Positions 9,923-28,112 of a stretch of 55,604 nucleotides of DNA are shown piece after piece (within the stretch, counting starts at the first letter, position 1; each line of letters opens with the position of its first letter). Under the pieces are notes generated by a model. It did no database searches, was not told the DNA's origin, and worked only from the letters and a program-made list of their open reading frames with translations. The stretch is from Acinetobacter phage vB_AbaM_3098: the sequence record PV081573.1, one strand, 5' to 3'. Made by a program: the position numbers and the translations under genes.

Positions 9923-9936
9923 TATTGGTATAAATA

Positions 9937-11427
9937 ATGACAAAACCTAAACTTAAAATTGGTCTAACTTGCAATGGCGGAATGATTCGTGGTATCTTCA
10001 AGGAAGAGATGAGTCACGCTAACTCCGCCGTACTTGACAGCGTAATCTATAAAATGTTTGATAGATTATTTGACTGTACTTTCTATTTACTCAAACCTCT
10101 AGCTTCGAAAACTACAGAGAAGATTTTGGTTAAGAAGCAATCTGAGGGAGATGAGTTTGCTAATCGTTTTGAAATGACATTTAAGAAAGATCTGTCAGAG
10201 TATCCGAAGCATCTTGATATTATATTTGCAGGTCAAGGTCCAGATGTATTGCTGATGACTGGTAAATTCCAAGGTGGAAAATATACTCATGCATTTAGCT
10301 ATTTCTACACTCTAGCTATGTATCCAGAAACACCTGTATTTGCAATTCAGACTGATTTTGTTACATATTTTCCAACTCCGGAAAGCTATGCGCACGGCAT
10401 CTTCCCAGCCATGTTTCCGAACCTCTTCGCAAATCGAGGGATGTTTATAGTTCCGATGGGGACAACGCCCCAAGACCATGAGCTCTTCTACTGCAAACGT
10501 GGTGCAAACAGCCTTCCTAGTCATAACTTCATGCATACTTCTGTAGATCAGCAATTTATGATCGAACCTCCTACTGAAGATGAGATGCTTCCAATACCAG
10601 AAACTTGTGAAGGTGTTGCATTTGCAGGTAAGGATAGAAGTCAAGGAAGTAGACTCTGGCAGTTTATTTTAGCATCTAAAGGTTCACCTTCAACTCCATT
10701 TAAGTTGATTGGAAAATGGACTGCACCTGCTACTGTTGCATTAATTGAAGCGAACAATGTTGGTAACTTAACTTATACAGAGAAAGCTGTAGATCATGCT
10801 GAAGTTCTGAGAGAATATAATAAACACGGATTTACACTTTATATTAGTTGTAAAGAGTATCGCAACTGTTTTACTATTACTTCTCGCTTCATGGATTCAC
10901 TTAAAGCTGGAGCTGTTCCTCTAATCTGGCATGAAGAAGCTGAGACATTCAAACGTTACTTTGATCCTCAGTTTGTTAACTTGATAACCGTAAATGAAGC
11001 CAATATTGACGATGTTCTTTATAATCTCCAGTCAAAAGAAATTAGAACTAAAGTTATTAATTATTTCTTAGATGCTTACAGCTTGTATCACACACTGGTT
11101 ATTAATGAAATTGAATCTATCATTAAGAATGTAGCTGCTAATGCAGATGAATTATACACTCCAATGGACACTAAAGCTACAGCTTTAGCTATTAAGAAAT
11201 TCATTTTGGAGCGTGGTAAATCAACTGAAGATCAAGTTAATGAACATATTAAATCAACCTTTCAACATGTTGGTAAATCATTCTGGGAAATTGCTAATGC
11301 AAATGTATACCAGACTAAAGTTGCACTTGGTTTATTCAACATGAATAAGAACAAGGAAAGCTGGGATGATTTAGCTGAGCATGAGAGAGTTGAAATTACA
11401 CGTTTGATGAACTTCCTCGGGAAATAA
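9937..11427 (+). CDS. hypothetical protein (496 aa), first gene of the sugar-modification cluster
   Basis: Long ORF; followed by a perfect 24-nt palindrome terminator; no diagnostic motif seen. Confidence 0.55.
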   Translation: MTKPKLKIGLTCNGGMIRGIFKEEMSHANSAVLDSVIYKMFDRLFDCTFYLLKPLASKTTEKILVKKQSEGDEFANRFEMTFKKDLSEYPKHLDIIFAGQGPDVLLMTGKFQGGKYTHAFSYFYTLAMYPETPVFAIQTDFVTYFPTPESYAHGIFPAMFPNLFANRGMFIVPMGTTPQDHELFYCKRGANSLPSHNFMHTSVDQQFMIEPPTEDEMLPIPETCEGVAFAGKDRSQGSRLWQFILASKGSPSTPFKLIGKWTAPATVALIEANNVGNLTYTEKAVDHAEVLREYNKHGFTLYISCKEYRNCFTITSRFMDSLKAGAVPLIWHEEAETFKRYFDPQFVNLITVNEANIDDVLYNLQSKEIRTKVINYFLDAYSLYHTLVINEIESIIKNVAANADELYTPMDTKATALAIKKFILERGKSTEDQVNEHIKSTFQHVGKSFWEIANANVYQTKVALGLFNMNKNKESWDDLAEHERVEITRLMNFLGK

Positions 11428-11434
11428 GACAAGA

Positions 11435-11466
11435 AGCTGTTTAGATATCTAAACAGCTCATTTTGG
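11435..11466 (+). terminator. palindromic hairpin / weak terminator
   Basis: Perfect 24-nt palindrome agctgtttagatatctaaacagct followed by cattttgg. Confidence 0.45.
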
Positions 11467-11467
11467 A

Positions 11468-12595
11468 GTGCAAATGAGAAAATTAAATATCTTAGTTATT
11501 GCTGATAACTATGTACCATTGCTGAAAGATAAAGTAATGGGTGGAGCAGAACGAGTTCTAATGGAGCAAGTAGACGTTCTGGAAAAGTTTGGTCATGATA
11601 TAATTGTCATTTGTCCAAAGGATTCAAATCTTAATTCAATGTGGTCAATAGACGAATTCTCTAAAAATTACTATCTGAAAGATGGAGTTAAACCGCCTCG
11701 TAATTTAAATCAGCTTACAATTAAAGCCATTGATGCTCTTACTCAAATGGACACTAAGCCAGATTTAATTATTAATCATCATAAACAAGCATCTGTAATT
11801 AAACATTTAGCAACACTTGCTGGTAAATTTAAGATTGTATCTCATATTCACAATGCACCTATCTTCGGCATGTTAAGTGTTGCAACTAATAATGCATATC
11901 TTGAACTTGCCAGAGCTGGTGGGATTAACCTAGGTGTGTCTGGTTGGTGTACTCGAGTGAATAACCAGATGACTCCGCATTGTGTTACTGACACTTTAAT
12001 TATGCAAATTGCACGTGAGCGTTTTCAAGTTAAAGAGCCAACAATTCAATCTATTGCTATTAGTAGATTTGTCGATATAAAAAATTTACATTGGTATGCT
12101 TCTTTATTAAAAGAAGAGAAAGTTACTGGTAATCTAGTTGGATATGTGGAAGATCAAAATGATAAATATTGGAATTCTACTTTAAAGGATCTAGTTCAAA
12201 ATCAACCTTTCTGGAAATCAGATCTTAACTACCAACAGACTATGGATTTACTTGCTTCCTCTTTAGTGTATGTCCAAACATGTCATCTGGAAACTTCAAG
12301 TTGTACTCAATTTGAAGCTGCTCAGCGTGGAGTTCCTTCTATTGTCTGCACAAAGAGAAATGGTCACGGATCTTTCGAAGGTTCTTTCTTACCTGAATTA
12401 GCTTATTTAGAAGTTGATACTTATCGTTTAGGTTGGGATAGAATTTCTTCTGAGTTAAATAAAGTAATAGAGGGTGTACCATTTAATCTGGAAGCTAGAC
12501 AGAGCTTGGCAGATTATATCTACGATAACTTCAATGAAGAAAAGTGGATGGAAAATTTTGAAGCTGTACTTGTGAAATGGTTCGGAGTAATTTAA
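11468..12595 (+). CDS. glycosyltransferase (GT-B fold, GT4-like)
   Basis: N-terminal LNILVIADNYVPL..GGAERVL typical of the GT4 N-domain; C-terminal E..FEAAQRGVPSIV E-x7-E-like motif. Confidence 0.55.
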   Translation: MQMRKLNILVIADNYVPLLKDKVMGGAERVLMEQVDVLEKFGHDIIVICPKDSNLNSMWSIDEFSKNYYLKDGVKPPRNLNQLTIKAIDALTQMDTKPDLIINHHKQASVIKHLATLAGKFKIVSHIHNAPIFGMLSVATNNAYLELARAGGINLGVSGWCTRVNNQMTPHCVTDTLIMQIARERFQVKEPTIQSIAISRFVDIKNLHWYASLLKEEKVTGNLVGYVEDQNDKYWNSTLKDLVQNQPFWKSDLNYQQTMDLLASSLVYVQTCHLETSSCTQFEAAQRGVPSIVCTKRNGHGSFEGSFLPELAYLEVDTYRLGWDRISSELNKVIEGVPFNLEARQSLADYIYDNFNEEKWMENFEAVLVKWFGVI

Positions 12596-13722
12596 TGAGA
12601 ATTTTATTAGTTCATTCTTACTTCCATTATCTGGAAGATTTAGATAAACCTGCAGGTGGAATTGAAACTCATACAGCTGGATTATATAGAGCTCTAACTG
12701 CACTTGGTCATGATGTTACTATAGCTGCAACTAGAGATTCTAGACTTCCTCTACATATTAAATTTGTTCCAATCGACAACATTTGTAAGGATTCTACTAA
12801 AGGTAGATATTCCCAAATTGCTGGATATGAGTATATTTATTCTAAAATCCAGGATGGAGATTTTGATTTAGTAATTAATAACAATCCATCTTTCACAGCT
12901 TTCCGAAACCTAGATATAATTTGTGAGCAAGAGAATATTCCTCATTTCTTCTTCGTTCATCATATCATGGATGACATTTCTACTAAGAAAAACATTCAGA
13001 TTCTTAATGAATCTTCTGCTAAAGTTATCTGCGTAAGTGGTTATATTGCTGATCAAATTCGAGAGAAAGGTTTCAATAAGCAACGTGTTGTACTTAACTC
13101 AAACTTCGCTGAACCTTCAGTAGCCTATATTGGAGCTGAGCGTGGAGAGGAGGTTCCTGATGGTCAGTTCATAGTTTCAATGGCTTGTAGAATTGTTAAA
13201 GCTCGTGATGTCTTATTTGCTATTGAGACTATTCTAAATGAAACTGATTTCTGTATCAAGATTATTGGAACTGGGGTTAATCATCCATCAGAACTTGATT
13301 ATCACAATAAAGTTCTAGACCTAGCTATTAGAAATCCTGATCGAGTTTGGATTAAGGGTCGCTTAGATCAAGAGAAAACTTGGAGAGAGATAGCCTACTC
13401 TGACGTGTACTTGAACTTATGTACTCATGAGGCATATGGTCTATCTGTATTCGAAGCTCAGAAGATTGGTATTCCTGTAGTCTATGCTTATAAAGGTCGT
13501 CATTGTGGTCCAGCTAATATTGTTAATGTAAATACAGGTACAATTGATACTGGTGCAGCTGTTGACTTTGCTGGACTAAACCAGAAAGCTAGAGCTAAAG
13601 CTTTAGTGGAAGCTATTGAGTATACTCGAGGTTTGAGTAAGAAAGCTATCTGGGAGCAGGTTAATGAGTTTAACTCCCCACGCATCTTTGCTGAGCGACT
13701 ACAAGAAGTGCTAGGACTGTAG
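12577..13722 (+). CDS. glycosyltransferase family 4-like
   Basis: MRILLVHSYF..PAGGIETH N-domain; C-terminal EAYGLSVFEAQKIGIPVV (GT4 EX7E motif). Confidence 0.65.
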   Translation: MVRSNLMRILLVHSYFHYLEDLDKPAGGIETHTAGLYRALTALGHDVTIAATRDSRLPLHIKFVPIDNICKDSTKGRYSQIAGYEYIYSKIQDGDFDLVINNNPSFTAFRNLDIICEQENIPHFFFVHHIMDDISTKKNIQILNESSAKVICVSGYIADQIREKGFNKQRVVLNSNFAEPSVAYIGAERGEEVPDGQFIVSMACRIVKARDVLFAIETILNETDFCIKIIGTGVNHPSELDYHNKVLDLAIRNPDRVWIKGRLDQEKTWREIAYSDVYLNLCTHEAYGLSVFEAQKIGIPVVYAYKGRHCGPANIVNVNTGTIDTGAAVDFAGLNQKARAKALVEAIEYTRGLSKKAIWEQVNEFNSPRIFAERLQEVLGL

Positions 13723-13741
13723 CTGTCTCTTAAGAAGCTTT

Positions 13742-13763
13742 AAAACCTGTTAATTTGTGGGCG
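13742..13763 (+). promoter_or_regulatory. conserved motif AAAACCTGTTAATTTGTGGGCG with hairpin; putative promoter
   Basis: Motif followed by gggcg-tttactct-cgccc; 33 nt upstream of ATG 13796; partner AGCTGTCTCTTAA lies upstream. Confidence 0.45.
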
Positions 13764-13795
13764 TTTACTCTCGCCCCTTATTAAGGTAAATTAAA

Positions 13796-14152
13796 ATGTT
13801 TGATATGGATTCTATTGTAACAGATCTCTGCACTATGATCAATTGTAAGTCTCATCTTGATGAGATAAGCCAAGAGGTTCTAGATTTTATTAAGAAAAAT
13901 TCGGAGATTCCTGAAACCAAGCTTTACCGAGCTATTTGGGAATCTGATGAAGGCAAGACCGTCCTTAGTTATAGTGAGAATTCTGAATTTCTCAGATCTC
14001 AATATGAAAATGTGAAGATAGTTGAAATGGAAGAAGGAACCAGAGCTTTCTGTCTGTATAAATTCCTATTCTCAGAACTTACGGAATATGAGCTAGAAGA
14101 CATTACAGAATTACTAAATCTGGAGAAAGAGTGGCTTGTAGCTGTTTCTTAG
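13796..14152 (+). CDS. hypothetical protein (118 aa)
   Basis: ORF downstream of promoter-like motif 13742-13763; the C-terminal codons ..VAVS* are encoded by the recurring AGCTGTTTCTTAG motif. Confidence 0.5.
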   Translation: MFDMDSIVTDLCTMINCKSHLDEISQEVLDFIKKNSEIPETKLYRAIWESDEGKTVLSYSENSEFLRSQYENVKIVEMEEGTRAFCLYKFLFSELTEYELEDITELLNLEKEWLVAVS

Positions 14153-14161
14153 AAAGTATAA

Positions 14162-14184
14162 GAGCCTGTTCATTTGTGGGGGCG
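14162..14184 (+). promoter_or_regulatory. conserved motif GAGCCTGTTCATTTGTGGGGGCG with hairpin; putative promoter
   Basis: Motif variant plus GC hairpin; upstream of ATG 14227. Confidence 0.4.
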
Positions 14185-14226
14185 GTTGGCGCACCCACAA
14201 TGTGTTCTTATTATAGGAAATGTGTT

Positions 14227-14559
14227 ATGAATCTAGTTCAACTTCTTATCGAATTAGGCTTGGCTAAATCGTACAGCTACAAACTTCTTCTACCCCATCC
14301 AGATTGCAGACCTGCTGCTTTCATGAAATTTATGTTAGGTTCAGTACCTAAGCACGATACACTTCTGAGCACTAATGTAGAGTTAGAGAATTCAGAGGAA
14401 TCTGATGATTATTATGGCTTATTTACAGAGTATAATTCTCTGTCAGATAAGGTATTATTTAATTCTGCGTATGGTCCAATAGAAGCAGCTAAGACTGAGA
14501 CTCATCTGTTTGTCCTTACTAAACAAACTAACATTCTAGATAAAATTAGAATTGTGTAA
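14227..14559 (+). CDS. hypothetical protein (110 aa)
   Basis: ATG at 14227 with RBS agga; downstream of promoter-like motif 14162-14184. The track start at 14131 overlaps the previous gene and is unlikely. Terminator at 14571. Confidence 0.45.
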   Translation: MNLVQLLIELGLAKSYSYKLLLPHPDCRPAAFMKFMLGSVPKHDTLLSTNVELENSEESDDYYGLFTEYNSLSDKVLFNSAYGPIEAAKTETHLFVLTKQTNILDKIRIV

Positions 14560-14570
14560 TCCGTAAAATC

Positions 14571-14607
14571 GTCCTAACAGCTGTTTAGTTGTTAGGACTT
14601 TTTATTT
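14571..14607 (+). terminator. rho-independent terminator
   Basis: gtcctaaca-loop-tgttaggac followed by tttttattt. Confidence 0.7.
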
Positions 14608-14626
14608 ACCTAGGAATCAAAATAAA

Positions 14627-15289
14627 ATGATATTTAATCGTGATGACGAATCTGTTTTATTCGTTTCTGCACATCCAGATGACAGCGAAATTTTTGCTGG
14701 TGGAACTATCGCTAAATTAGTTGCTGATGACATTGATGTTCATGTGTTGTTATTATCTCAGGGTTCGAAAGGTGGTAAAGATGAAGTTCGTGTAAATGAA
14801 TTTCGTGATGCTGTGTTGAGCTTAGGTGTACCTGAACCAAATATCTGGTATAAAGACTTCCCAGACACTGTTTTCTATAATAACGAAGCTGAAATTGTAG
14901 GTGCAATTGAGTTTGTTATTAAGAAAATGCAGATCCAGACTGTCTTTACTCACCACCCTTTTGACACTCATCAAGACCACCGAGTTACTGCAAATGCAAC
15001 TTTAGCAGCTGCTCGTAATATCAAAAATGTACTTTTCTATTGCCCTTCTTGGCCATCTGGTCGCACTTCAGTTCCATTTCATAATGACTTTATTGTCAAA
15101 TTGAGTCAGGATAATGTTGAAGCTAAGATCAAAGCTTTGTATTGCTACAAGTCTCAGATTAAGAAATATGGAGCTGATGATTATGTTGGCACTCACCGTG
15201 CAATTTTGAAAGCTAACTCTTTAACTCTAACTGGAGATGTTAAGGGGAATGCAGAAGTGTTCGAAATCAATCGTGTAGTGTATGAGTAA
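14627..15289 (+). CDS. PIG-L/LmbE family N-acetylglucosaminyl deacetylase
   Basis: Signature SAHPDDSEIFAGGTI (AHPDDE motif) and HPFDTHQDH zinc-binding His cluster. Confidence 0.7.
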   Translation: MIFNRDDESVLFVSAHPDDSEIFAGGTIAKLVADDIDVHVLLLSQGSKGGKDEVRVNEFRDAVLSLGVPEPNIWYKDFPDTVFYNNEAEIVGAIEFVIKKMQIQTVFTHHPFDTHQDHRVTANATLAAARNIKNVLFYCPSWPSGRTSVPFHNDFIVKLSQDNVEAKIKALYCYKSQIKKYGADDYVGTHRAILKANSLTLTGDVKGNAEVFEINRVVYE

Positions 15290-15294
15290 TTAAT

Positions 15295-15663
15295 ATGAAA
15301 CTTAAATCAATCTTATTATCAGCAGCATTAATCTCTACTTCAGCCACAGTTGAAGCTGGAACTAACTGGTTTGAAGTAGCAGGTAAAGCTATAAATGCCG
15401 CTATTGACATTAAGCAAGGTAATGTAGATAAGGCAGTTAACAGATTTGCTAAGCCATATGTAACTCCAGAACAGTACGAAGCTGATCCCGATCGATATGC
15501 AGATTGGATTTATGTTGAACGCAAACGCAATATATTTAGTCCAGAATATTATGATCAGTGGTGCTCATATCCAATCCGTGCGAATGTTATTCAAATAGAT
15601 GCCAGCGAATTTCCAAAAGGTTGCCCTAAGTATCTTGCAGTTCATCCAAATGAGGCATATTAA
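15295..15663 (+). CDS. secreted protein with N-terminal signal peptide
   Basis: MKLKSILLSAALISTSATVEAG is a signal-peptide-like N-terminus. Confidence 0.5.
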   Translation: MKLKSILLSAALISTSATVEAGTNWFEVAGKAINAAIDIKQGNVDKAVNRFAKPYVTPEQYEADPDRYADWIYVERKRNIFSPEYYDQWCSYPIRANVIQIDASEFPKGCPKYLAVHPNEAY

Positions 15664-15696
15664 TGGTTAAATTTATAATGTTAAAATATGTGAGAT

Positions 15697-15981
15697 GTGA
15701 TTATGTTTATTGAAGACCTACCTCCCCATGTACAACGTATGATTGCTGAATACAATCAAGTTAAAGAAAATGTAAATAAAGCTAGTGCATTTCTGGCTCA
15801 AGAGCAGAATAGAGAAACCGCAGTAGCTGGAATTCCAGAAGATGAATGGAATGACTTAAGAGATCAAACTCAAGGTTACAGATTAGTGCTGCGTCACTTA
15901 GGAAGTAGATTAAAACGTGCTGGTGTTGATCTTGAGTCTTTCAGCGAAGACCATAACTGGATAATTGCAGCTCCTCTATAA
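15697..15981 (+). CDS. hypothetical protein (94 aa)
   Basis: ORF, coding strand. Confidence 0.4.
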   Translation: MIMFIEDLPPHVQRMIAEYNQVKENVNKASAFLAQEQNRETAVAGIPEDEWNDLRDQTQGYRLVLRHLGSRLKRAGVDLESFSEDHNWIIAAPL

Positions 15982-16017
15982 TAAGATAAAAAGCTGTCTT
16001 TTGTGAAGGAAGCAGAA

Positions 16018-16221
16018 ATGCGATCTAAACATTTAAAACAATTGTTAGTTGAAGCTTGGATTAAACTAACACAAACTGAGGAAAACTATATGTTACCAAT
16101 TTTAAATCCAATCGTTTCAAAACATTATGCAGCTCAAAAAGCTGGCATCTTAGCTCGTCAAGTTAAAGCTCGTGCTGCAAGTAAACGTGCAAAACAAGCT
16201 CGTAAGTTGAATCGTAAATAA
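16018..16221 (+). CDS. small basic protein (67 aa), possibly nucleic-acid binding
   Basis: ATG at 16018 with RBS aggaag; K/R-rich C-terminus ARQVKARAASKRAKQARKLNRK. Confidence 0.4.
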   Translation: MRSKHLKQLLVEAWIKLTQTEENYMLPILNPIVSKHYAAQKAGILARQVKARAASKRAKQARKLNRK

Positions 16222-16591
16222 AAACGTCTACCAGAGAAGAGCTTTGGTGGATTTAATTAAAGATTTCTTGGAGGGTTAGTAGATGAAATTTATTACTTTT
16301 CAGAGCTTTAGCACTGCCGACACAGGCACATGCAAAGAATGTGGAAATCCTAATCATATGCATAAGCCTTGGTGTAACAATTGGTAAACCAATCGTCTCT
16401 CTAATCGCCTCAAAAGCTGTTTAGGGTCTAAGAGATCAGAGAACCTGAATCTCTTCTTATTATATAGTTAAATTTAGATATAAGTTGTGAGTTGTACGAA
16501 CTCTCGTCTTCTTGAGGATTTGGTTATGAAATAAGCTCTCTAATCGGCTTAAAAGCTGTTTAAAGCGTTCACAACAAAGGAACAAATAATA

Positions 16592-16771
16592 ATGTTTGGA
16601 ATCTTGATTTTGCTTCAAGTGGTTCTAAATATTCCCTTAGTACCTATTGAAATAAAACGATTCCCTGAACCTGCATTCAGATACCAGTTTAACATCAAGT
16701 TGGGAAACTTTGAGTGGTTGAGAATGCAAGATGGTCAATACCATCAAGTAAGGGAACGAATGTTACAGTAA
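16592..16771 (+). CDS. small hydrophobic protein (59 aa)
   Basis: ATG preceded by aagga; located downstream of the repeated element CTCTCTAATCGGCTTAAAAGCTGTTTAAAGCGTTCA. Confidence 0.3.
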   Translation: MFGILILLQVVLNIPLVPIEIKRFPEPAFRYQFNIKLGNFEWLRMQDGQYHQVRERMLQ

Positions 16772-16911
16772 GGTCGCTGGGAATAATTTAAGACCAACTC
16801 TCGGCTAGGTGCAGTAGAACTGTTAAATTTTGCTCGACTTTTATCGGTGGACGTACAAACTCCACGCGCCTTAGAGCAGCCTAGCTAAACTATAAGTAAG
16901 CTCTTAACTGA

Positions 16912-16989
16912 GTTTACTTTTAGATGTGATCTAACACACTTTTACACTCCGGTATTTCAGTGCTGATTAGATTACATCTAAAAGTAAAC
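16912..16989 (+). repeat. long hairpin (about 23-bp stem, 32-nt loop) in the RNA-rich region
   Basis: gtttacttttagatgtgatctaa (16912-16934) is complementary to ttagattacatctaaaagtaaac (16967-16989) with one G-U. Confidence 0.6.
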
Positions 16990-17280
16990 ATTTAAGGATG
17001 ATATAGTCTTAATATGCTGGTTTGATTTGCCAGTTCAGACTTACTAAATTTCTAAATTGCCAAAGACTTCTGGAAGTGATTTAAACCGAGCAGGTGAAGA
17101 GAGTAAAGCCTCCTGACTGCATATCCAGAATAGGTTATTAGAAAGGTGTACGTGACGCTAGAATCAGGGATTTAAGTTTCAAGTTAGACATGCCACATGT
17201 ATGCAGAGTATCAGTCTGGTAAGCTGGTGCACTTCAAAGTTGTGATAATTTAGAAGTGCCGACTCTTTAATGATACCAGA

Positions 17281-17304
17281 AGCTGTTTAAAGTATGAGAT
17301 CACC
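17281..17304 (+). promoter_or_regulatory. conserved motif AGCTGTTTAAAGTATGAGATCACC; putative promoter for tRNA-Arg
   Basis: Contains both AGCTGTTTAAA and GTATGAG; about 105 nt upstream of the tRNA at 17409. Confidence 0.4.
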
Positions 17305-17408
17305 GAGAAGTGATAACTGACATTACCTTTAATTTTATGATTAAAGTCTTTTTGATTAATGTTTAGATACAGTTATCACTATCTTGTTGATTTCTTAGTT
17401 CACATTGC

Positions 17409-17482
17409 AGGGCTATAGCTCAGATGGATAGAGCATTCCACTTCTAATGGAATGGTCGTGAGTTCGAATCTCACTAGCCCTG
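17409..17482 (+). tRNA. tRNA-Arg (anticodon UCU)
   Basis: Perfect cloverleaf: acceptor agggcta/tagccct, D-stem gctc/gagc, anticodon stem ttcca/tggaa with loop cTTCTaa (anticodon TCT), T-arm gtgag-ttcgaat-ctcac, discriminator G. Confidence 0.85.
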
Positions 17483-17730
17483 CAATGTGAACTATTAATT
17501 AACATTAGACAGCCGATTTCGGATCGGTGACGTGGCTGAGAGAGTGAGCACAAACTGTTAGTACTTCTAGTAGAAGAACCACGTGACATCTCGGAAGATA
17601 GCGAGAAGTGGGTAGGTGTAGACTTCCCACTTAAAGCGAAATAGACTACATGTTGATTAGGCATGGCTTAATTAGGGTTGCAACCTTCTAACTGCTCAGG
17701 CAAGTGGTAAATAGCAACTGATATTTCCTT

Positions 17731-17773
17731 AGTTCATTTAGTAGATTAATCTTGATCCGCAGTCGAGATTAAT
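17731..17773 (+). repeat. 15-bp perfect hairpin immediately upstream of the HNH gene
   Basis: ttagtagattaatct-tgatccgcagtcg-agattaatctactaa. Confidence 0.55.
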
Positions 17774-17802
17774 CTACTAAATGTTCTACTGCGGAGGTTA
17801 TA

Positions 17803-18447
17803 TTGGAACACTTAGAACTGCCATTTGATAAAGATGGTATTTGGAAATTATATAATGATGATCTTGCTAATCTTAGCCATGAAAGATCAATGGGCAGAAA
17901 ATCTGCTGAATCAAAAGGTCATCCTTACTATGGTATATTGAGAGAACTTTACAACTATCCTCACTTTATATCCTTCTCTGGAATGCACAGTAGACTCAAG
18001 TATTCTAAATTGGCAACTGATTTCCCGAGAACATTAGAAGGTTTTATTGACTATATTGTCTACATGGGTCCAGTACCTTCTGGAATGGAGAGACCTGTAG
18101 CTGGCCGAATAGATCATTCTGTAGGTTATCTAAGAGGTAATTTTGCATGGCAAAGTGCGGAGGACAACAATAGAGAATCTGCACTAAGAAATCAAAAGAA
18201 TGGTAAGTGGTTAGGTTACCAGACATGCGCAGCAGCTGGAATGCAAGACTGGAATGACGGAGTAAGAAATTATAGACTTCAACCAGATGACCCAAAGATA
18301 AAAGAATTAAATTTAAACAAAGGTAGACTATATACTCCAGACGAAAGAGTACAATGTCCTCACTGTTTAAAAGAAGGCGGTATTAAGAGAATGAAACAAA
18401 TTCATTTTGATAAATGCTACTTAAAAGATTCCAGTAAAACGGAATAA
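17803..18447 (+). CDS. HNH-family homing endonuclease-like protein
   Basis: GRIDHSVGYLRGNFAWQSAEDNNRE resembles the HNH H-N-N core, plus a C-terminal CPHC..C motif; located in the tRNA/tmRNA region as in T4 seg/mob genes. Confidence 0.45.
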   Translation: MEHLELPFDKDGIWKLYNDDLANLSHERSMGRKSAESKGHPYYGILRELYNYPHFISFSGMHSRLKYSKLATDFPRTLEGFIDYIVYMGPVPSGMERPVAGRIDHSVGYLRGNFAWQSAEDNNRESALRNQKNGKWLGYQTCAAAGMQDWNDGVRNYRLQPDDPKIKELNLNKGRLYTPDERVQCPHCLKEGGIKRMKQIHFDKCYLKDSSKTE

Positions 18448-18459
18448 TCACTGTAAAGT

Positions 18460-18510
18460 TATAAGTTATTAAGGCTTTGTGGACATGGGTTCAATTCCCA
18501 TCTACTCCAC
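18460..18510 (+). ncRNA. ssrA: tmRNA acceptor piece (3' part of a permuted ssrA): T-arm plus acceptor 3' strand
   Basis: T-arm atggg-ttcaatt-cccat (18485-18501), then ctactcc + discriminator A + C (18502-18510). It pairs with the GGGGTAG at 18540 including a G3:U70 wobble, the alanine identity element. Confidence 0.5.
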
Positions 18511-18539
18511 ATTAATGAATTCTAAGAGTTTATTAATGT

Positions 18540-18720
18540 GGGGTAGTACTGGTTTCGACACAGAGTATATAGAGCTTGTAATCAGTGGGATTGAGACCCT
18601 AAGTTTCAAACTTAAATACAAAAGCTAATGATAGTACTTTTGGTACTCGTGCTCTAGCTGCTTAATTGCAGTTAGACTGAGTGGAGTTCGGAGGAGCTTT
18701 GCAACAGAAATCCTCCAACC
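18540..18720 (+). ncRNA. ssrA: tmRNA coding piece (5' acceptor strand, tag reading frame ANDSTFGTRALAA*)
   Basis: GGGGTAGTACTGGTTTCGACACAG matches the conserved tmRNA 5' end (E. coli GGGGCUGAUUCUGGAUUCGACGGG). Resume codon GCT at 18624 after caaaa. Tag ORF 18624-18665 encodes ANDSTFGTRALAA and ends ALAA-TAA. 3' boundary uncertain. Confidence 0.55.
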
Positions 18721-18959
18721 AATTAATTACGACAATTATCTTCGAAACTAGCTGTTGCCACTTCAAGGTGAAAGTCCTTAGTGAAACACAGCTTTATGGT
18801 TACTTAAAATAAGTATCTGAAGTTACGTAGATAGGATTCTGAAGTAAGTAGAGCGTAGAGGATAAAATTAGATTAGCTATCTATACGAATACTCTCCACA
18901 GTGGACTTAATCCATTGGACCGAGCTTATAGCATAAGAAGATAATTGTCGTAATTAATT
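18721..18959 (+). repeat. 23-bp perfect inverted repeat flanking a 193-bp segment downstream of the tmRNA tag region
   Basis: aattaattacgacaattatcttc (18721-18743) vs gaagataattgtcgtaattaatt (18937-18959). Confidence 0.65.
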
Positions 18960-19382
18960 AAGAGTGAATAATATGAAATTTATTTGCGTTAAATGCTCAC
19001 GTTCAATCTGGTTTGTTGATGAACTAGGTTGCTGTGGAAGATGTTCTGAAGATAAAACAGGATTCCCTACTGTATTTAAGTAGGGGCGTTTGCGACTGAG
19101 AGGAATTGGGTATTCTGCACTCTCTTTAATAAAAGTAATACCAGCAGTTTCAAGTCTGCTTTTAATATAGTCACTTCTTAGAGTGATCACGAATGAACTA
19201 GCGAATGTATTAGTCTTGCATGCCTTGTGTTGTACATTTGAATAGCTTTCAAGAGCCGATATTAATAATCAAAACTTGACCCAATTTCATATTGAAATAA
19301 TTTGTTAAACAATTAACAAGGATCGCAACCTTGATTGGGTGTACTGAAAGCACTATCAGATTATTTCAATATGAGATTAGTT

Positions 19383-19691
19383 ATGAAAAGTTCTGAAATT
19401 ATAAAGATCATTTCTGCAATACGAAATTCACATCCAGACTTAACTATAGTTTACACTGAAGGTCATTGTTTTGACTTTCATGTAATCCTTCGGACGATTC
19501 TGGGTAATGATAAAGTAGAGCTCTGGCATGATCATATTGAAGGGCATTTCTACACTAAAGTAGGAAATTACTGGTATGACATCAGGGGAATTCATTATAA
19601 AGTTTCCCAGAGTTGTGTAAAGTGTTCTTACTCTGAGTTCGCTCATAAGCCACATCGCTGGTCTAGGAACTCAGGAATAAAGATTAGGTAA
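19383..19691 (+). CDS. hypothetical protein (102 aa)
   Basis: ORF in the RNA-rich region; start uncertain (ATG 19335/19371/19383). Confidence 0.35.
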   Translation: MKSSEIIKIISAIRNSHPDLTIVYTEGHCFDFHVILRTILGNDKVELWHDHIEGHFYTKVGNYWYDIRGIHYKVSQSCVKCSYSEFAHKPHRWSRNSGIKIR

Positions 19692-19787
19692 CTTGGTAGA
19701 GTTGGTTGATTACACTGCTGAGTAAGCGAAAGCTGAAACGTGGCCATGTGAAGGCATGCAACGCAGGTTCGAACCCTGCAGTTATCT
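19687..19787 (+). ncRNA. tRNA-like element (possible degenerate or unusual tRNA)
   Basis: Perfect T-arm gcagg-ttcgaac-cctgc. A 7-bp acceptor-like pairing ggtaact/agttatc spans 101 nt. A D-arm-like gtag...ttac is present. No canonical anticodon arm could be folded. Confidence 0.25.
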
Positions 19788-20100
19788 AGTATTCACCTCA
19801 GCCTGAATCACACAGGTTCTGTTAGATCAGAGAATTAGAGGTCATGGAGATATTATGATTGCGCACTTGCTCTTGACTCCTTAGCAATTAAACAAGACAG
19901 TAAGAGACCAACGTCCTGTAAGTCTCAAAGTAGGATCGTACCTACAAGCGGTTAGCATTATTATGCTGTCTTATATAGGATTACTGCTGAAAACTCTGGA
20001 AGATTTTCTGTTCCCTTAGCTTAGAAGTAAAAGCACCCTGCTCATAACAGGAAGATCGAGATTGCAAAATTCTCAGGGGACACCACTTGTACCATCTCAA

Positions 20101-20141
20101 CCCAGCTAGGAATTCCCCTATTCACCTAGCTGGGTCTTTTT
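20101..20141 (+). terminator. strong rho-independent terminator in the RNA region
   Basis: 10-bp stem cccagctagg / cctagctggg followed by tcttttt. Confidence 0.7.
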
Positions 20142-20146
20142 ACTCT

Positions 20147-20321
20147 AGTTATTTAATAAGAGTATACTGTCGCTACACTGTCTGGTATTGGAAACTTATC
20201 GCGGAAGACAGTACGACTACCTCTAGGATTGAGTTTACTCTCCACCTTGCAAGACAAGTTAATGCGCTGTTTAACTTGAAGGTAAAATAGAGCAGTGGCA
20301 GTATACTCTTATTAAATAACT
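20147..20321 (+). repeat. 23-bp perfect inverted repeat flanking a 129-bp segment
   Basis: agttatttaataagagtatactg (20147-20169) vs cagtatactcttattaaataact (20299-20321); starts 6 nt after terminator 20101-20141. Confidence 0.65.
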
Positions 20322-20417
20322 ATTTTTATTGTCCTTTTTGGCTTTTTAATCGTCTCTGTAATGGCTCCAAAAGCTGTTTAAAGCGTTCAAGATAAGCCAC
20401 AATTAGTGAGTTTATTT

Positions 20418-20633
20418 ATGGGTTTTGGACTTGTATGTTTTACATTGACGGTTTGCTTAATAATTTATTTAGGCAAGATGATCGATTTTGAACCTGACAA
20501 TTTAATCTGGCTTAAGCTGGATGAAATTAGATATGTACAATATCTCTGTAGAATCTTGACAGTATTAATAATCCTGGATTTGTATTTCTTCATGTCTTGG
20601 ATTATAAAATTACTACTTAACTTATCTTCTTGA
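20418..20633 (+). CDS. small membrane protein (71 aa)
   Basis: Two hydrophobic segments; downstream of the third copy of the CTCTGTAATGGCTCCAAAAGCTGTTTAAAGCGTTCA element. Confidence 0.4.
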   Translation: MGFGLVCFTLTVCLIIYLGKMIDFEPDNLIWLKLDEIRYVQYLCRILTVLIILDLYFFMSWIIKLLLNLSS

Positions 20634-21019
20634 GTTAAGTCAGTATAGACAACTTAAGATGGCAGTAAACTGCTGAGCTTGCTTGCACATTAGCTCCCTC
20701 CGACTGTAAGAGAAGTGTCGGACACTCTCCATGAGTGAAACTGAAGCCCAATAGATGGCTGGATACGTTGACCACTTGCGTATTTCAGATGGGTAATTCA
20801 GGATGCGAGGTTACTTTAAGTGGGAAATAAGCCAATGGCGTGAAATGTGGCTGTAATAGCGACATGAGGGTAGGCTCGGGATTGGCGCAACCAATCCACC
20901 TAGCCAGTCAAGGGGGAAGAGTAATCTCACCTTTATCTATCTTTAGATAATAAACTAATCTTAGTTAATTAAGTGAAATTAACTAAGTGCAATTATCTTA
21001 ACTCAACTAAGTGAAGTTT

Positions 21020-21409
21020 ATGTACATTATAATCAATTACTTAAATAAAATAAAATGCAGTAACTTAAAACTAGAATCACATAAAGATGAGCTAATTTTA
21101 GTTAGACGTACTGGGCTTCAAAGCCCAGACTGTATTGTAGCTGTTATTGCACCCTTAAACAAGAAGGTCTTCAACATCTATTATGACTTCCAGAAACTAC
21201 CAACTGAGATAGACTGTAAGTTTGTATCTAATGTTAAATATGAACGTGTAAACGAATTCATTGAAGCTCTCTTCGGACATCTGGCGCATTCAGAGAAAGC
21301 TGTCTCATTAGAGTCGTGGCTTAAATGTGAGCGATTAAAGATTAAATCTATTCCAAGTCAACTTACAGAGTTGTATACTTCAGCTCTACATGAGGAAATG
21401 TTCCAGTAA
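21020..21409 (+). CDS. hypothetical protein (129 aa)
   Basis: ATG at 21020; upstream direct repeats AAGTGnAnTT x3. Confidence 0.5.
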   Translation: MYIIINYLNKIKCSNLKLESHKDELILVRRTGLQSPDCIVAVIAPLNKKVFNIYYDFQKLPTEIDCKFVSNVKYERVNEFIEALFGHLAHSEKAVSLESWLKCERLKIKSIPSQLTELYTSALHEEMFQ

Positions 21410-21672
21410 TGAGTACAAATAAGTTAGTCTTCTCTGGCTTAAATAGAGATCAAACAACAAGAGTTGAAATCTATATTAAAGTAATTAACGGAAGTCCTAT
21501 TAGCTATCTTGGAGTAGGAATTAATAATCAAACCCAGAATCAAGTAGCGAGTAAGGAAGAAATTATTCTAGAGGACTTACTTAAATGGGCAACTCGTTCT
21601 GGTATTAGATTTACATTTGATCAGGTAAATTCTATTAAATTAGAATATAACAAATTATTAGCTGTTTCTTAA
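21409..21672 (+). CDS. hypothetical protein (87 aa)
   Basis: ORF; the C-terminal ..LAVS* is encoded by the AGCTGTTTCTTAA motif. Confidence 0.5.
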   Translation: MSTNKLVFSGLNRDQTTRVEIYIKVINGSPISYLGVGINNQTQNQVASKEEIILEDLLKWATRSGIRFTFDQVNSIKLEYNKLLAVS

Positions 21673-21682
21673 ACACTCTCAG

Positions 21683-21703
21683 AACCTGTTAAGGTATGAG
21701 ACG
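21683..21703 (+). promoter_or_regulatory. conserved motif GAACCTGTTAAGGTATGAGACG; putative promoter of the leader-family array
   Basis: Exact AACCTGTTAAGGTATGAG core; 23 nt upstream of ATG 21726. Confidence 0.5.
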
Positions 21704-21725
21704 AAGACACAGTTGGAGATTTAAA

Positions 21726-22010
21726 ATGACTACACGTATAGAACAAATTCTAATCAAGCAACAAGGCTTAAAGTCTGTAAATGAATCAGCATTCAAAGAG
21801 CCTGATGAAAAAGAAGTTAAGGCTCACTATCTAAAATTATCCAGTATATCTGCAGATAATTACAAGGATAAACGAATTAACTTAGGTCCAGAACCAGACA
21901 CAATTTCTAAGTTTTCTAGAAATGGTTCTCACACTACTAAAATCAAGAACTGGATTAAAGAAGTTCATCAAACTCCAGAATACAAGAAAATTTTAGATAG
22001 AGCCAAATAA
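21726..22010 (+). CDS. leader-family protein 1 (N-terminal MTTRIEQILIKQQGLKSVNE|S)
   Basis: ATG at 21726 after promoter-like motif 21683-21703. Shares the conserved N-terminal leader with 9 downstream paralogs. The track start at 21696 is the ATG inside the GGTATGAG motif. Confidence 0.6.
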   Translation: MTTRIEQILIKQQGLKSVNESAFKEPDEKEVKAHYLKLSSISADNYKDKRINLGPEPDTISKFSRNGSHTTKIKNWIKEVHQTPEYKKILDRAK

Positions 22011-22059
22011 AGCTGCTCCTTCAACAATTAACAAATTTCAACGGAAATGTACATATAAA

Positions 22060-22521
22060 ATGACTACACGTATTGGTAAAATTTTAGAGATAAATGAATC
22101 TTTGTCAGAAGTTAATGAATCTGATTCCAGTTTAACAATAAACGGTAAGAATTATGCCGTTTCATTTATAAAAGGTGGAGATAGATATGAAGGTGTTAAC
22201 TATAGCTTAGTCCTTAAATCTAAGGAAGATATTTTAGTTTACCCTAGAATCTTCACTTACTCTGGCGGACAAAGTCAAGGTAGCTCTCGTAGTGAATCAG
22301 AGAACTTTTTAGAAGTTCTAGGTTATGGAGATACTGGCAATGGCTCTGGAGTAAAAGGTACTCCTAAGCCTTACTTAAGTAGATATATTGTTGATTTCCT
22401 AGAATCAGTTATCTCAGGTAAATCATATAATAAGGAAGCAGTAGCTAAATATGAAAGAATTAAGCACACTTTTTCACCTAAAGCAAAAGCTTCTGAAATT
22501 AAATCTGCAATCAGTTATTAA
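22060..22521 (+). CDS. leader-family protein 2 (MTTRIGKILEINESLSEVNE|S)
   Basis: Conserved N-terminal leader; conserved 5' UTR ttcaacgg..ataaaATG. Confidence 0.6.
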   Translation: MTTRIGKILEINESLSEVNESDSSLTINGKNYAVSFIKGGDRYEGVNYSLVLKSKEDILVYPRIFTYSGGQSQGSSRSESENFLEVLGYGDTGNGSGVKGTPKPYLSRYIVDFLESVISGKSYNKEAVAKYERIKHTFSPKAKASEIKSAISY

Positions 22522-22559
22522 CTGTTCTTTTTGAACAGTTTTCAACGGAGAAACATAAA

Positions 22560-22907
22560 ATGAGTACACGTGCAACAAATATTCTTTCAAAAATAACTGG
22601 TTCAGTTAACGAAAGCTCTCAGAAAGGGAAATCAATTAAGAGTGAACTAGAATTAGCAGAGTACGCTAGTGAGTTTATTAAGAAAAACAATATTAAAAGA
22701 GTTCCTGATCCTTTGTCTAACTACAAAGATAACTTTTTAACTCCACAGTGGAAGCGATCTGGTGCTGTATTAGGTTATAAATTACCAAAATCAGCAGGTG
22801 GTTTATTCTTAGGTTATTTCAACAGTGGTACTAAATCTGGAGTTGTGTTTGATACTCCTATTAGTGAGACTGAATTTCTTGCTCTAACAAGAAAACTTAA
22901 CGGATAG
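22560..22907 (+). CDS. leader-family protein 3 (MSTRATNILSKITGSVNE|S)
   Basis: Conserved N-terminal leader; conserved 5' UTR. Confidence 0.6.
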   Translation: MSTRATNILSKITGSVNESSQKGKSIKSELELAEYASEFIKKNNIKRVPDPLSNYKDNFLTPQWKRSGAVLGYKLPKSAGGLFLGYFNSGTKSGVVFDTPISETEFLALTRKLNG

Positions 22908-22956
22908 AGCTGTTCCTTCAACGATTTCAAAACAAATTTCAGTAGAGAAATATAAA

Positions 22957-23244
22957 ATGACTACACGTATTGGAAATATCTTAGAGAAGCGTGCTGGTTC
23001 AGTAAATGAATCAAAGATTGACCACCAGAAACTGGCTAATGATGCAGATTCAAACTATAAGCATTACGCTAATAAAGGTGATGAAAAGCATAGATTAATG
23101 GAAAGATTCAGATACCATTATCATTCTTCAAAAATAGAAGGAAAATCTGATTCAGATAAGGCTAACCACATTAAGAAAGCTAAAGCGGTTTACATTGATC
23201 TAGGAAAACCAGCATCTTTATCTAAAATGCACAATGATCTTTAA
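22957..23244 (+). CDS. leader-family protein 4 (MTTRIGNILEKRAGSVNE|S)
   Basis: Conserved N-terminal leader; conserved 5' UTR. Confidence 0.6.
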   Translation: MTTRIGNILEKRAGSVNESKIDHQKLANDADSNYKHYANKGDEKHRLMERFRYHYHSSKIEGKSDSDKANHIKKAKAVYIDLGKPASLSKMHNDL

Positions 23245-23270
23245 AGCTAGCTGTTCCTTCAGCGATTTCA

Positions 23271-23292
23271 AAGCCTGTTAATTTGTGGCGGT
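23271..23292 (+). promoter_or_regulatory. conserved motif AAGCCTGTTAATTTGTGGCGG; putative promoter of the RNAP fragment gene
   Basis: TTTGTGG variant; upstream of ATG 23335. Confidence 0.4.
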
Positions 23293-23334
23293 GGCTTGTC
23301 ACATTATAATATTATTTGTAATAGGGATTACATT

Positions 23335-24858
23335 ATGTCAAAAGTTCACGTTTCTAAAGATATGAGCGAAATCTATCGTCTTAAAGAAATGAAGATTCTT
23401 AAGATCACTTCTCCAGTTCGATTCAAAATGGAAAGTGGCTGGGTAGATACAACTGTTGGTCGTTTAATTATCTGGGATATTTCTGGTTATCTTCCAGACG
23501 ATTTCTTAAATAAGAAAACTATCAAGCATTTGATCACTCATATAAATCGTAACTTTGAACCTAAGGAAGCTGTACTTCGTTTAAAACGAATACAGCAAAT
23601 CGGCTTTGAAACTTCAACCCAGACTGGATTATCATTATGTTATGATGACTTCAAGTTTGATTTTGGTATTGATTTCAAGGCTGTAGAAGGTGAACTTTCT
23701 AAGATGTCTGTTGAAGAGCGATTAGAGTACGGCGATAAAATCATCAATGAAGCTACAGCTCGCTGGTGGAATGAAGTCGATAAAGCTAATCCACTTCGTA
23801 AGATGGGTGTATCTGGAGCTCGTGTAACTGATGCTCAGGTTCGTCAGATGATTGTAGCTAAGGGTCTCTTAGGTTCGATGACTGGTGAAATTGCACCTTA
23901 CCCTATTATGGAATCACTCACAACTGGTCTTAGTACATTTAACTACTTCCAGACAGTAGGTCCAGCTCGACGTGGTCTTGCAGATAACTACTTCGTAGTT
24001 CCAGCTTCAGGTTACTTTGCTCGACAGCTTGTAACAGTAGCTCGTGACTTGAAGTGTGTTGAGCATGATTGCGGAACTGTAAATACAATCTACGTTCCAA
24101 TTGAGTTTGGTCGAGGTCGACATGAACTTGGTAATGATGATGTCTTAACTAAGATGGATTTACAAGTTAGATCTGGTGAGATGATTAAAATGCGATCTCC
24201 AATTACTTGTGAATCAAGCAAGGGTGGAGTTTGCCAAGTGTGTGCAGGCTTAGATCCAGCTACTGAAGATTATTGGCGTATTGGAATGGGACTTGGAACT
24301 TGCTCAGCACAGCATATCTCAGAACCAACTACACAGTTAGGTCTTCGAGGTAAGCATACATCTGGATCGGTTACTCTAGCTTCAGCTAAGACTAAGGTAA
24401 GTAACACATTAGCAGATCTATTGAAATTGTTAGGTGGACGTGGTACTCACTTGATTGGACCTCAGTTAAGTGAGATAGATGGCTTTAATGATTATTATTC
24501 AAAAGAGAAAGACTGGTTGAAAGCTACAACTAATCTTCTTCTTAAAATGGAAAGTCTGGTAAGCGGAGCTGGTACGAGTATCGCATCTGTTCACTACGAG
24601 ATGATCTTACGTGGTTGTACTGATATCGTCAAGCAAGGTGACGGGACAATGGGTCTGCGTTCACTAGGAGCTCACGGTAAGGTTCAACCAACAACAGTTC
24701 ATGCATATGGCCGTAAAGTGCCTAGTTGGTTAAAACGATTAGGTTATGGTTATACGAATGAAGTTATCAAGACTGCAGCTACTACTCTGGAACCATCTTT
24801 AGGTGGATATCAAGAGCAGATTATTATGGCTCAGTTTGAACATCTTGAGGAAGCCTAG
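23335..24858 (+). CDS. multisubunit RNA polymerase beta-prime C-terminal fragment-like protein
   Basis: ITCESSKGGVCQVCAGLDP...GMGLGTCSAQHISEPTTQLGLRGKHTSGS matches the beta-prime trigger-loop/bridge region (E. coli ..[44 protein letters not shown]). ATG at 23335 downstream of motif 23271-23292. Confidence 0.55.
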   Translation: MSKVHVSKDMSEIYRLKEMKILKITSPVRFKMESGWVDTTVGRLIIWDISGYLPDDFLNKKTIKHLITHINRNFEPKEAVLRLKRIQQIGFETSTQTGLSLCYDDFKFDFGIDFKAVEGELSKMSVEERLEYGDKIINEATARWWNEVDKANPLRKMGVSGARVTDAQVRQMIVAKGLLGSMTGEIAPYPIMESLTTGLSTFNYFQTVGPARRGLADNYFVVPASGYFARQLVTVARDLKCVEHDCGTVNTIYVPIEFGRGRHELGNDDVLTKMDLQVRSGEMIKMRSPITCESSKGGVCQVCAGLDPATEDYWRIGMGLGTCSAQHISEPTTQLGLRGKHTSGSVTLASAKTKVSNTLADLLKLLGGRGTHLIGPQLSEIDGFNDYYSKEKDWLKATTNLLLKMESLVSGAGTSIASVHYEMILRGCTDIVKQGDGTMGLRSLGAHGKVQPTTVHAYGRKVPSWLKRLGYGYTNEVIKTAATTLEPSLGGYQEQIIMAQFEHLEEA

Positions 24859-25435: not shown

Positions 25436-25480
25436 AAGCTGTTTCTTAAGCATTGTTAAAACCTGTTAAGGTATGAGACG
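25436..25480 (+). promoter_or_regulatory. bipartite motif AAAAGCTGTTTCTTAAGC...AAAACCTGTTAAGGTATGAGACG; putative promoter
   Basis: Both motif halves present with about 24-bp spacing; palindrome agacgtct follows; 34 nt upstream of ATG 25514. Confidence 0.5.
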
Positions 25481-28078: not shown

Positions 28079-28112
28079 TATGAGGGCACCTAAGCCCTCC
28101 TCGGAGTTTAAA

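Follow-up and report, generated by a model that had tools for sequence, protein, structure and literature searches.

Which RNA is encoded just downstream of the open reading frame (ORF) of 214 amino acids (aa) found at positions 17803-18447 of Acinetobacter phage vB_AbaM_3098 (PV081573.1), and is its gene still a working one? The window that we analysed is a 55,604-nt stretch (55.6 kb) of a genome probably about 110 kb long, and a preliminary description, made from its letters alone, had proposed that the phage encodes a circularly permuted transfer-messenger RNA (tmRNA) of the two-piece type. This proposal is borne out by ARAGORN, by two covariance models, by ab initio folding and by covariation among homologues. 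We therefore hold with high confidence that the segment from 18449 to about 18720 (+ strand) is an intact, circularly permuted ssrA gene, present as an accessory cassette in a lytic-looking Acinetobacter phage.

ARAGORN calls a permuted tmRNA ('tmRNA*') with the tag ANDSTFGTRALAA. The general permuted tmRNA model of Rfam, RF04321, is matched over its full length (positions 1-213; 108 bits, E 3.5e-20, for a gathering score of 47), and the beta-type model RF01850 is matched end to end (positions 1-331; 88.9 bits, for a gathering score of 84). The gene is AT-rich (36% GC) and contains a complete tRNA-Ala-like domain, with a T-loop of the TTCRANT type, the discriminator A18509 and a 7-bp acceptor stem formed by 18540-18546 with 18508-18502. 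The G3:U70 wobble, already recognized as the alanine identity element, corresponds to G18542:T18506 in this stem.

All parts lie on the + strand. The acceptor piece extends from 18449 to 18509 (RF04321 model positions 1-64). It comprises the upstream strands of helix P2 (18449-18453, 18463-18466, 18475-18477 and 18479-18481, from the RF04321 alignment and the minimum free energy (MFE) fold), the T-arm ATGGG-TTCAATT-CCCAT (18485-18501, from sequence, RF04321 and the MFE fold) and the 3' acceptor strand CTACTCC (18502-18508, from sequence and RF04321). An intervening segment of 30 nt (18510-18539) folds as a hairpin coaxial with the acceptor stem, as seen from inverted repeat I2 and from the MFE fold. 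The coding piece, of which 18540-18720 is the minimum extent according to ARAGORN and the Rfam models, begins with GGGGTAGTACTGGTTTCGACACAG (18540-18563), which in the Rfam alignment falls on the conserved tmRNA 5' end GGGGgUGaAaUGGuUUCGACggG, as first described. In this piece, the 5' acceptor strand GGGGTAG (18540-18546), followed by TACTGGTTTCGAC, precedes a D-loop-like stretch TACTGGTTTCGA (18547-18558), the downstream P2 strands (18559-18587) and, between P2 and the resume codon, pseudoknot PK1 (about 18588-18610), located by the complementarity of its stem 2 across lineages. The tag frame has no start codon: in the ARAGORN call, which coincides with the initial reading, it opens at the alanine resume codon GCT (18624-18626), runs for 13 codons (18624-18662) and ends in a hydrophobic ALAA degron followed by a TAA stop (18663-18665). 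The AND...ALAA ends of the tag match the classic ClpXP/SspB degron. A post-tag hairpin (18690-18695 with 18711-18716), complementary across lineages, lies beyond the stop.

The gene order is thus reversed, the T-arm and the 3' acceptor strand standing upstream of the 5' acceptor strand, with the intervening segment between them, at the very positions first assigned to them. No T-arm had been seen downstream of the tag, and none is found there by the Rfam models or by a T-loop motif scan, the only other GGNTCRANTCC match in the window being located at 47585. A one-piece tmRNA, which would have its T-arm and acceptor strand downstream of the tag, is thereby ruled out.

The folding of the region points in the same direction, and it indicates that the precursor is able to take up the structure which a two-piece tmRNA needs. 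The unconstrained MFE fold of 18440-18725 reaches -99.2 kcal/mol, compared to -64.2 +/- 4.8 for shuffled sequences (z = -7.4), and it recovers P2 and the T-arm, along with a single long helix in which the acceptor stem is continued by the spacer hairpin. The 7-bp hairpin that had been noticed between the two pieces is therefore real, but its extent was understated: together with the acceptor stem it forms a near-continuous helix of about 21 bp, with 22-nt arms (18502-18523 and 18525-18546) that are 86% complementary.

Homologues were found in several ways. The closest DNA relative found is a permuted tmRNA of phage BUCT628 (MZ593728, 39440-39724), unannotated in GenBank, which is 72% identical over about 290 nt and scores 123.9 bits with RF04321 and 94.3 bits with RF01850. 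Searching with the upstream 214-aa ORF yielded short assembly contigs (L057-L059 and L060), and a looser DNA pattern, AATCACTGTAAA...TGGACNNGGNTT, retrieved four metagenome contigs, three of which (L061-L063) hold a real permuted tmRNA. This looser pattern has no match in IMG/VR, and neither do the patterns CAAAAGCTAATGATA...TAGCTGCTTAA and GGGGNNGTACTGGTTTCGACACAGNGT; the lineage-specific pattern TTCGACANNGNGTATATAG...GCTAATGA has no match in metagenome or genome contigs. Two bacterial genome contigs matching the looser pattern (L065 and L066) are not tmRNA according to ARAGORN or Rfam, and no bacterial donor or prophage copy is identified among the pattern matches in bacterial genome contigs.

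Seven sequences were aligned plainly with MAFFT and the structure of the window was transferred to them. Pairing is kept in 76.6% of the alignment cells, compared to 41-55% when the partners are slid by 1-3 columns, and 14 pairs show compensatory changes on both sides. The acceptor stem and the T-arm are each 100% paired, with three pairs changed on both sides in each helix; the outer P2 helix is also 100% paired, and G3:U70 is invariant in all seven sequences. Stem 2 of PK1 (stem 1 being assigned by eye only) is UUGAGA/UUUCAA in the window, UUGAUAG/CUAUCAA in BUCT628, AAAGA/UCUUU in L057 and L060, and CAAU/AUUG in L061 and L063, at equivalent positions. Likewise, the post-tag hairpin is complementary, with differing sequences, in the window, BUCT628, L057, L060, L061 and L063, and the spacer varies in sequence between homologues while its hairpin is retained. 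The tags are ANDNVFGAKTLAA in BUCT628, ANDATYGATAIAA in L057-L059, ANDANYGATAIAA in L060 and AANDSFYGDYA(L/I)AA in L061-L063; each of them starts with (A)AND and ends with (A/L/I)AA, without any frameshift. The compensatory helix changes and the conserved tag ends in homologues thus argue for purifying selection on the structure of the gene, as expected of a working gene rather than of a relic.

Could the gene nevertheless be a decaying relic, derived from chance host or donor DNA or from a tmRNA fragment of the type found at phage attachment (attP) sites, and giving no working tmRNA? Such an origin would fit the lack of an encoded CCA, of a clear promoter and of a clear terminator, as well as the patchy presence of the gene in related phages. 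It is however very hard to reconcile with a gene in which every functional element is intact, with seven diverged copies combining compensatory helix changes, an open tag frame and a canonical C-terminus, and with a complete gene where attP sites hold a 3' fragment. Furthermore, the 86 ORFs of the window match 32 Pfam families at E <= 0.001, and the 25 of these that are listed include no integrase family. We consider decay to be extremely improbable.

Several points do weigh against a working, host-matured ssrA gene of a well-defined type. The first concerns maturation: after the acceptor strand the DNA reads A-C-A-T, so that only the first C of CCA is templated, and maturation would rely on host enzymes. 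This concern is eased by the tRNA-Arg(TCT) gene at 17409-17483 (+; ARAGORN and Rfam), at the left edge of the variable region, which likewise has no encoded CCA (CAA comes after the discriminator G). This tRNA gene stands between inverted repeats, CACATTGC / GCAATGTG (17400-17492), that lengthen its acceptor stem, and its CCA-less, extended-stem precursor design is the same as that of the tmRNA with its spacer hairpin. The second point is that no convincing promoter or terminator delimits the gene, a scan having given fewer promoter-like sites than in shuffled sequences. The third is that the subtype of the lineage is mixed. The window and BUCT628 score best with the beta-type model, only 5-10 bits over the cut-off, whereas L060, L061 and L062 score best with the alpha-type model RF01849 (65.6, 56.6 and 53.6 bits, for a gathering score of 50), in a comparison limited by the fact that the RF01849 score of the window is hidden by clan competition. 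Finally, the part of the genome lying outside the window may encode a phage SmpB, which would bear on the use of the host protein.

Within the window, no SmpB is found among the same listed Pfam families, and the tmRNA would presumably need the SmpB of its host for this reason. This raises another possibility, namely that the RNA acts mainly as a decoy or competitor, which would titrate host SmpB or displace the host tmRNA, so that the products of stalled ribosomes receive a phage-specified tag and another fate or host trans-translation is damped, instead of merely raising rescue capacity. Competition for host SmpB would follow from the lack of a listed phage SmpB, and there is a precedent in phage DS6A, whose tmRNA, reduced to the tRNA-like domain, is reported to resemble inhibitors of endogenous tmRNA (PMC4131195, PMC11915505). 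The tags of the lineage could also be read in this way, as they are 3 residues longer than the classic 10-aa tag and have a conserved aromatic-Gly core, (F/Y)G. Nevertheless, the tag frame, PK1 and the ALAA terminus are conserved, unlike in DS6A, so that tagging itself is apparently selected, and the AND...ALAA ends match a standard degron. A role as a decoy is thus improbable in our view.

For a tmRNA that works in rescue, the following pathway can be proposed. The region would be transcribed rightward together with its neighbours as a single precursor. The intervening segment is presumed to be removed by RNase P and 3' trimming: host RNase P would cleave 5' of G18540, the 30-nt hairpin would be discarded and the upstream piece would be trimmed to A18509. 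As only A-C is templated, the host CCA-adding enzyme would then complete CCA. Two RNAs would result, the acceptor piece measuring about 64 nt and the coding piece 180 nt or more, and they would stay joined through the acceptor stem (7 bp) and some 15 bp of P2. This complex could be charged by host alanyl-tRNA synthetase through G3:U70, and be brought by host SmpB and EF-Tu to ribosomes stalled on broken mRNAs, where translation would resume at GCU 18624 and append ANDSTFGTRALAA, a ClpXP-type degron. The likely benefit for the phage would be to sustain or boost ribosome rescue during host transcription shut-off and mRNA degradation.

Downstream of the tag, an inverted repeat noticed from the start raises a question of its own. 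Its 23-bp arms (18721-18743 and 18937-18959), identified by repeat search on the + strand, are 100% complementary, with 0.00 matches expected from dinucleotide-preserving shuffles. The 239-bp unit (18721-18959) is separated by 4 nt from the post-tag hairpin on its left and by 13 nt from a 36-codon ORF on its right, and the 193 nt that it encloses are non-coding and not significantly structured (z = -1.3 and -0.3). Since in L060 an ORF starts about 20 nt past the post-tag hairpin, without any inverted repeat, the unit is lineage-specific rather than a conserved part of the tmRNA. In sequence, its left arm is similar to the 3' tail of the gene in BUCT628 (CCAATT...CGAC), a likeness suggesting that the left arm descends from an ancestral tail and was later copied in inverted orientation to give the right arm. 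No Rfam family is found for the unit at E <= 5. Three IMG/VR matches to a 17-mer of the arm were discarded as isolated chance matches, since they show no similarity beyond the 17-mer.

The inverted repeat could belong to the tmRNA precursor as a giant 3'-terminal hairpin, cut by RNase III or stabilising the 3' end, which would define the 3' limit of the coding piece and release the mRNA that follows. At 23 bp, the perfect helix has the length that RNase III needs, and its position between the post-tag hairpin and the next ORF is suitable. Such a role would also be consistent with the likeness of the left arm to the BUCT628 tail, with unidirectional transcription without an intervening terminator, and with the terminal hairpin of the beta-type Rfam model, otherwise missing here. 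As the repeat is not conserved in L060 and its 193-nt loop has no significant structure, we regard this precursor role as a serious possibility, yet a tentative one. The repeat might alternatively result from an event at the DNA level without any role in the tmRNA, either the insertion of an element resembling a miniature inverted-repeat transposable element with terminal inverted repeats, or an inverted duplication. The perfect identity of the arms points to a recent origin, the unit is non-coding and missing from homologues, and the arm ends form a palindrome, AATTAATT, that could hide a target-site duplication. However, no such duplication is unambiguously visible, the unit is present as a single copy in the window, and nothing related is found in plasmids, in IMG/VR or, beyond the tmRNA itself, in phage records. 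A DNA-level event is accordingly possible but rather unlikely.

How did the gene come to be in this phage? Among cultured phages, Acinetobacter phage Ab1-TPeters (109.7 kb) is nearest to ours, sharing 70-80% nucleotide identity with much of window 1-13000. Its corresponding locus encodes tRNA-Arg and tRNA-Met without a tmRNA: window 17484-19844 (2.36 kb) stands in place of about 226 bp that lie, in Ab1-TPeters, between the shared tRNA-Arg(TCT) and the next shared block. The 2.36-kb segment contains an RNA of unknown nature, the 214-aa ORF, the tmRNA, the inverted-repeat element, the 36-codon ORF and a YunG-like ORF. Among 50,697 phage records, only BUCT628 holds similar tmRNA DNA, and it is the only one of 111 Obolenskvirus-like records to do so, the 110 others sharing its flanks without the tmRNA. 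The BUCT628 copy (L001, about 4001-4342; region 3978-4363) has a copy of the hairpin GACCGCCnnGAAAGUnnGGCAAC on either side, where phage BP10 (L072, about 1578-1598) has one copy only, and it is inserted within a conserved non-coding RNA locus akin to window 17508-17730. From this arrangement, with direct repeats at both borders, the BUCT628 tmRNA appears to be an insertion there, or else the other phages have lost it by deletion. The tmRNA gene is thus an accessory cassette, common to unrelated Acinetobacter phages and patchily distributed.

The 214-aa ORF (17803-18447, +) is a candidate vehicle for this distribution. It encodes a candidate endonuclease of the HNH (beta-beta-alpha-metal) type, so named for a weak resemblance to HNH endonucleases, with a C-terminal CxxC...H..C zinc finger. 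It abuts the tmRNA gene, its TAA stop beginning the conserved TAATCACTG start of the gene, and homologues with 55% and 51% identity each stand directly before a permuted tmRNA, the ORF being conserved at this place in three phages that have diverged. Pfam, PHROG and the Protein Data Bank (PDB) give no sequence match for it, and a protein-based search finds no relative in IMG/VR. The idea that it could be an SmpB analogue was dropped, as it has no SmpB profile match and its fold resembles an HNH nuclease with a zinc finger. That an HNH-type homing endonuclease travelling with the tmRNA explains the patchy distribution is an attractive but unproven idea. In its fullest form, a small mobile cassette driven by this hitherto unrecognised HNH-like homing endonuclease would carry a tmRNA of foreign, two-piece format and with an extended tag between unrelated Acinetobacter phages, where it would counter the broken mRNAs and stalled ribosomes caused by host defences or shut-off. 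The BUCT628 tmRNA has no 214-aa ORF alongside, and we consider this full scenario as doubtful.

Other features were observed around the cassette. A near-perfect palindrome of 49 nt, CATTTAGTAGATTAATCT...AGATTAATCTACTAAATG, lies at 17735-17783, 20 nt upstream of the 214-aa ORF, and could be a regulatory or cleavage site. The 36-codon ORF to the right of the inverted repeat (18973-19083; MKFICVKCSRSIWFVDELGCCGRCSEDKTGFPTVFK) shows a CxxC...CxxC zinc-ribbon pattern and has no family match. Between tRNA-Arg and the 214-aa ORF, about 0.9 kb upstream of the tmRNA, lies the conserved non-coding element (about 17508-17730). Its 31-nt core GGCTGAGAGAGTGAGCACAAACTGTTAGTAC (17534-17564) is 97% identical in BUCT628 and BP10; this core, CUGAGAGAGUGAGCACAAACUGUWAG (26-31 nt), is near-invariant, enclosed in a stem and flanked by two more hairpins, the loop of one of which, GAAGAUAG, is conserved. 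Other copies of the element are at L001 3887-4000, L072 1480-1700, L071 1478-1870 and L070 7085-7225 (minus strand). The Ackermannviridae phage SH-Ab 15599 has about 81% identity over 79 nt, directly after a tRNA-Asn, and an exact 22-mer of the core is found in one GC-rich IMG/VR contig. The Acinetobacter phages that have the element in common, BUCT628, BP10 and SH-Ab 15599, are unrelated. RNAalifold predicts 27 pairs from four copies, 17 of them with compensatory changes, and no Rfam family is found at E <= 5. The element is probably an undescribed structured RNA family of phages, unrelated to the tmRNA.

The preliminary description had also suggested that the permuted form could hint at the host clade. 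The genes of the window lead elsewhere, since Acinetobacter baumannii is indicated by its tail gene and by its replication genes, which are closest to those of Acinetobacter phage Ab1-TPeters. All ORFs of at least 150 aa are on the + strand, and the encoded proteins include an SbcC-like nuclease, topoisomerase II subunits (79% aa identity with the Ab1-TPeters protein), RNA-polymerase-like proteins and a tail protein, with tailspike and pectate-lyase domains also present. The strongest host indicator is the tail gene (window 28431-30460; ORF 28080-30350), 91% identical in nucleotides to that of A. baumannii phages AP22, SPB and TT23, and according to this match the phage almost certainly infects A. 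baumannii. These are 46-kb Obolenskvirus phages to which the rest of the window genome is unrelated; the likeness of the tail gene indicates a probable mosaic exchange of the receptor-binding module between distant A. baumannii phages. Permuted genes have their main clades in Alphaproteobacteria, some Betaproteobacteria and Cyanobacteria (PMC11915505). As they are not described for the clade of Acinetobacter (PMC11915505), and as the cassette is patchy among unrelated Acinetobacter phages, the host clade cannot be read from the form of the gene. A highly expressed, abundant ssrA of its own is present in A. baumannii (PMC5320573; 10.1101/2023.09.20.558655), and judging by the established clade distribution (PMC11915505) it should be of the standard one-piece form.

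A Logan contig of 19 kb (L056) matches window 11803-24447 with 100% identity and is thus the same phage in another assembly. RNA polymerase beta/beta'-like matches (Rpb1 domain) are seen in the ORFs at 23296-24858 and neighbouring ones, which suggests that a multisubunit RNA polymerase may be phage-encoded. A 34-44-nt intergenic motif recurs with 88-91% identity at 5903-5936, 21660-21703, 25437-25480, 38905-38948 and 53916-53956, and an 88-nt direct repeat of 78% identity is found at 22007-22090 and 22904-22987; these look like phage promoters or regulatory repeats.

Among known systems, the parts of the window gene are ordered as in the two-piece tmRNA of betaproteobacteria (RF01850; for permuted ssrA, the 'third lineage'): P2 strands, T-arm, 3' acceptor, hairpin, 5' acceptor, P2, PK1, tag and post-tag hairpin. 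The post-tag hairpin loop CUUUGCAACAGAAA of the window also resembles the RF01850 consensus CCUUGuuACcaAAg. The window gene however scores only about 5 bits above the cut-off of this model, does not have its terminal GC-rich hairpin, and encodes a tag of 13 residues, compared to the 10 residues of the beta-like IMG/VR tags ANDERFALAA or ANDETFALAA. Moreover, it differs from the betaproteobacterial type in being carried by a phage, in a host clade not described with permuted genes. The tmRNA of BUCT628, an unrelated 45-kb Obolenskvirus, is similar in architecture, tag length and AND..FG...LAA pattern, but it encodes CCA, unlike that of the window, and it has neither the adjacent 214-aa ORF nor the 23-bp inverted repeat.

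A phage copy of the permuted form had been called unusual, which overstated the case. Phage tmRNAs have long been known in Bxz1-type mycobacteriophages, Bacillus phage G and DS6A (PMC4131195), where ssrA is borne by the phage without a reported phage smpB, as here; the layout of Bxz1/cluster C1 and phage G is however standard and unpermuted, and DS6A has no tag frame (PMC4131195). Buchholz et al. (2022) found tmRNAs in 402 of 18,146 phages, 133 of them unique and 53 of two-piece type, and 50 of these 53 come from marine or aquatic samples (PMC9004378); a tmRNA database of 2025 holds 79 phage sequences (PMC11915505). In our own scan of IMG/VR with one pattern, a permuted junction is present in 53 viral contigs, 49 of which hold a permuted tmRNA according to ARAGORN; some of these may be host genes at prophage borders. 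The marine phages (OM43 phage Melnitz and pelagimyophages) resemble our case in being lytic phages with a complete permuted ssrA and no reported SmpB, and the tmRNA type of Melnitz is likewise mismatched to the lineage of its host (PMC9004378). Their genes are alpha-like, some with a glutamine riboswitch in the 3' domain (PMC9004378), whereas no riboswitch is detected at the window gene with Rfam; furthermore, our phage has its host among clinical or sewage Acinetobacter, and an HNH-like ORF precedes its tmRNA gene, unlike in marine phages. In the papers on Acinetobacter phages that we checked, we found no description of a tmRNA, the term occurring only in ARAGORN citations, including that for temperate phage ABMM1, and we found no Acinetobacter phage entries in the supplements of PMC9004378 and PMC11915505.

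Our findings are modestly new by the host genus, by the cassette behaviour with a candidate endonuclease and by the lineage-specific 23-bp inverted repeat. To our knowledge, the function of a phage tmRNA has so far not been demonstrated experimentally. Most two-piece phage tmRNAs belong to marine phages, the hosts of which are hard to culture; A. baumannii is genetically tractable, has ssrA and clpXP, and is a frequent target of phage therapy. In such a tractable host one could test if a phage tmRNA matures, becomes charged and is put to use, and if a two-piece molecule is accepted where the tmRNA of the host is one-piece. The GenBank record of BUCT628 does not include its copy, and counts of such genes are therefore probably too low. 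Finally, the patchy distribution of the gene, together with the adjacent endonuclease-like ORF, suggests a route by which translation-related RNA genes could spread among phages.

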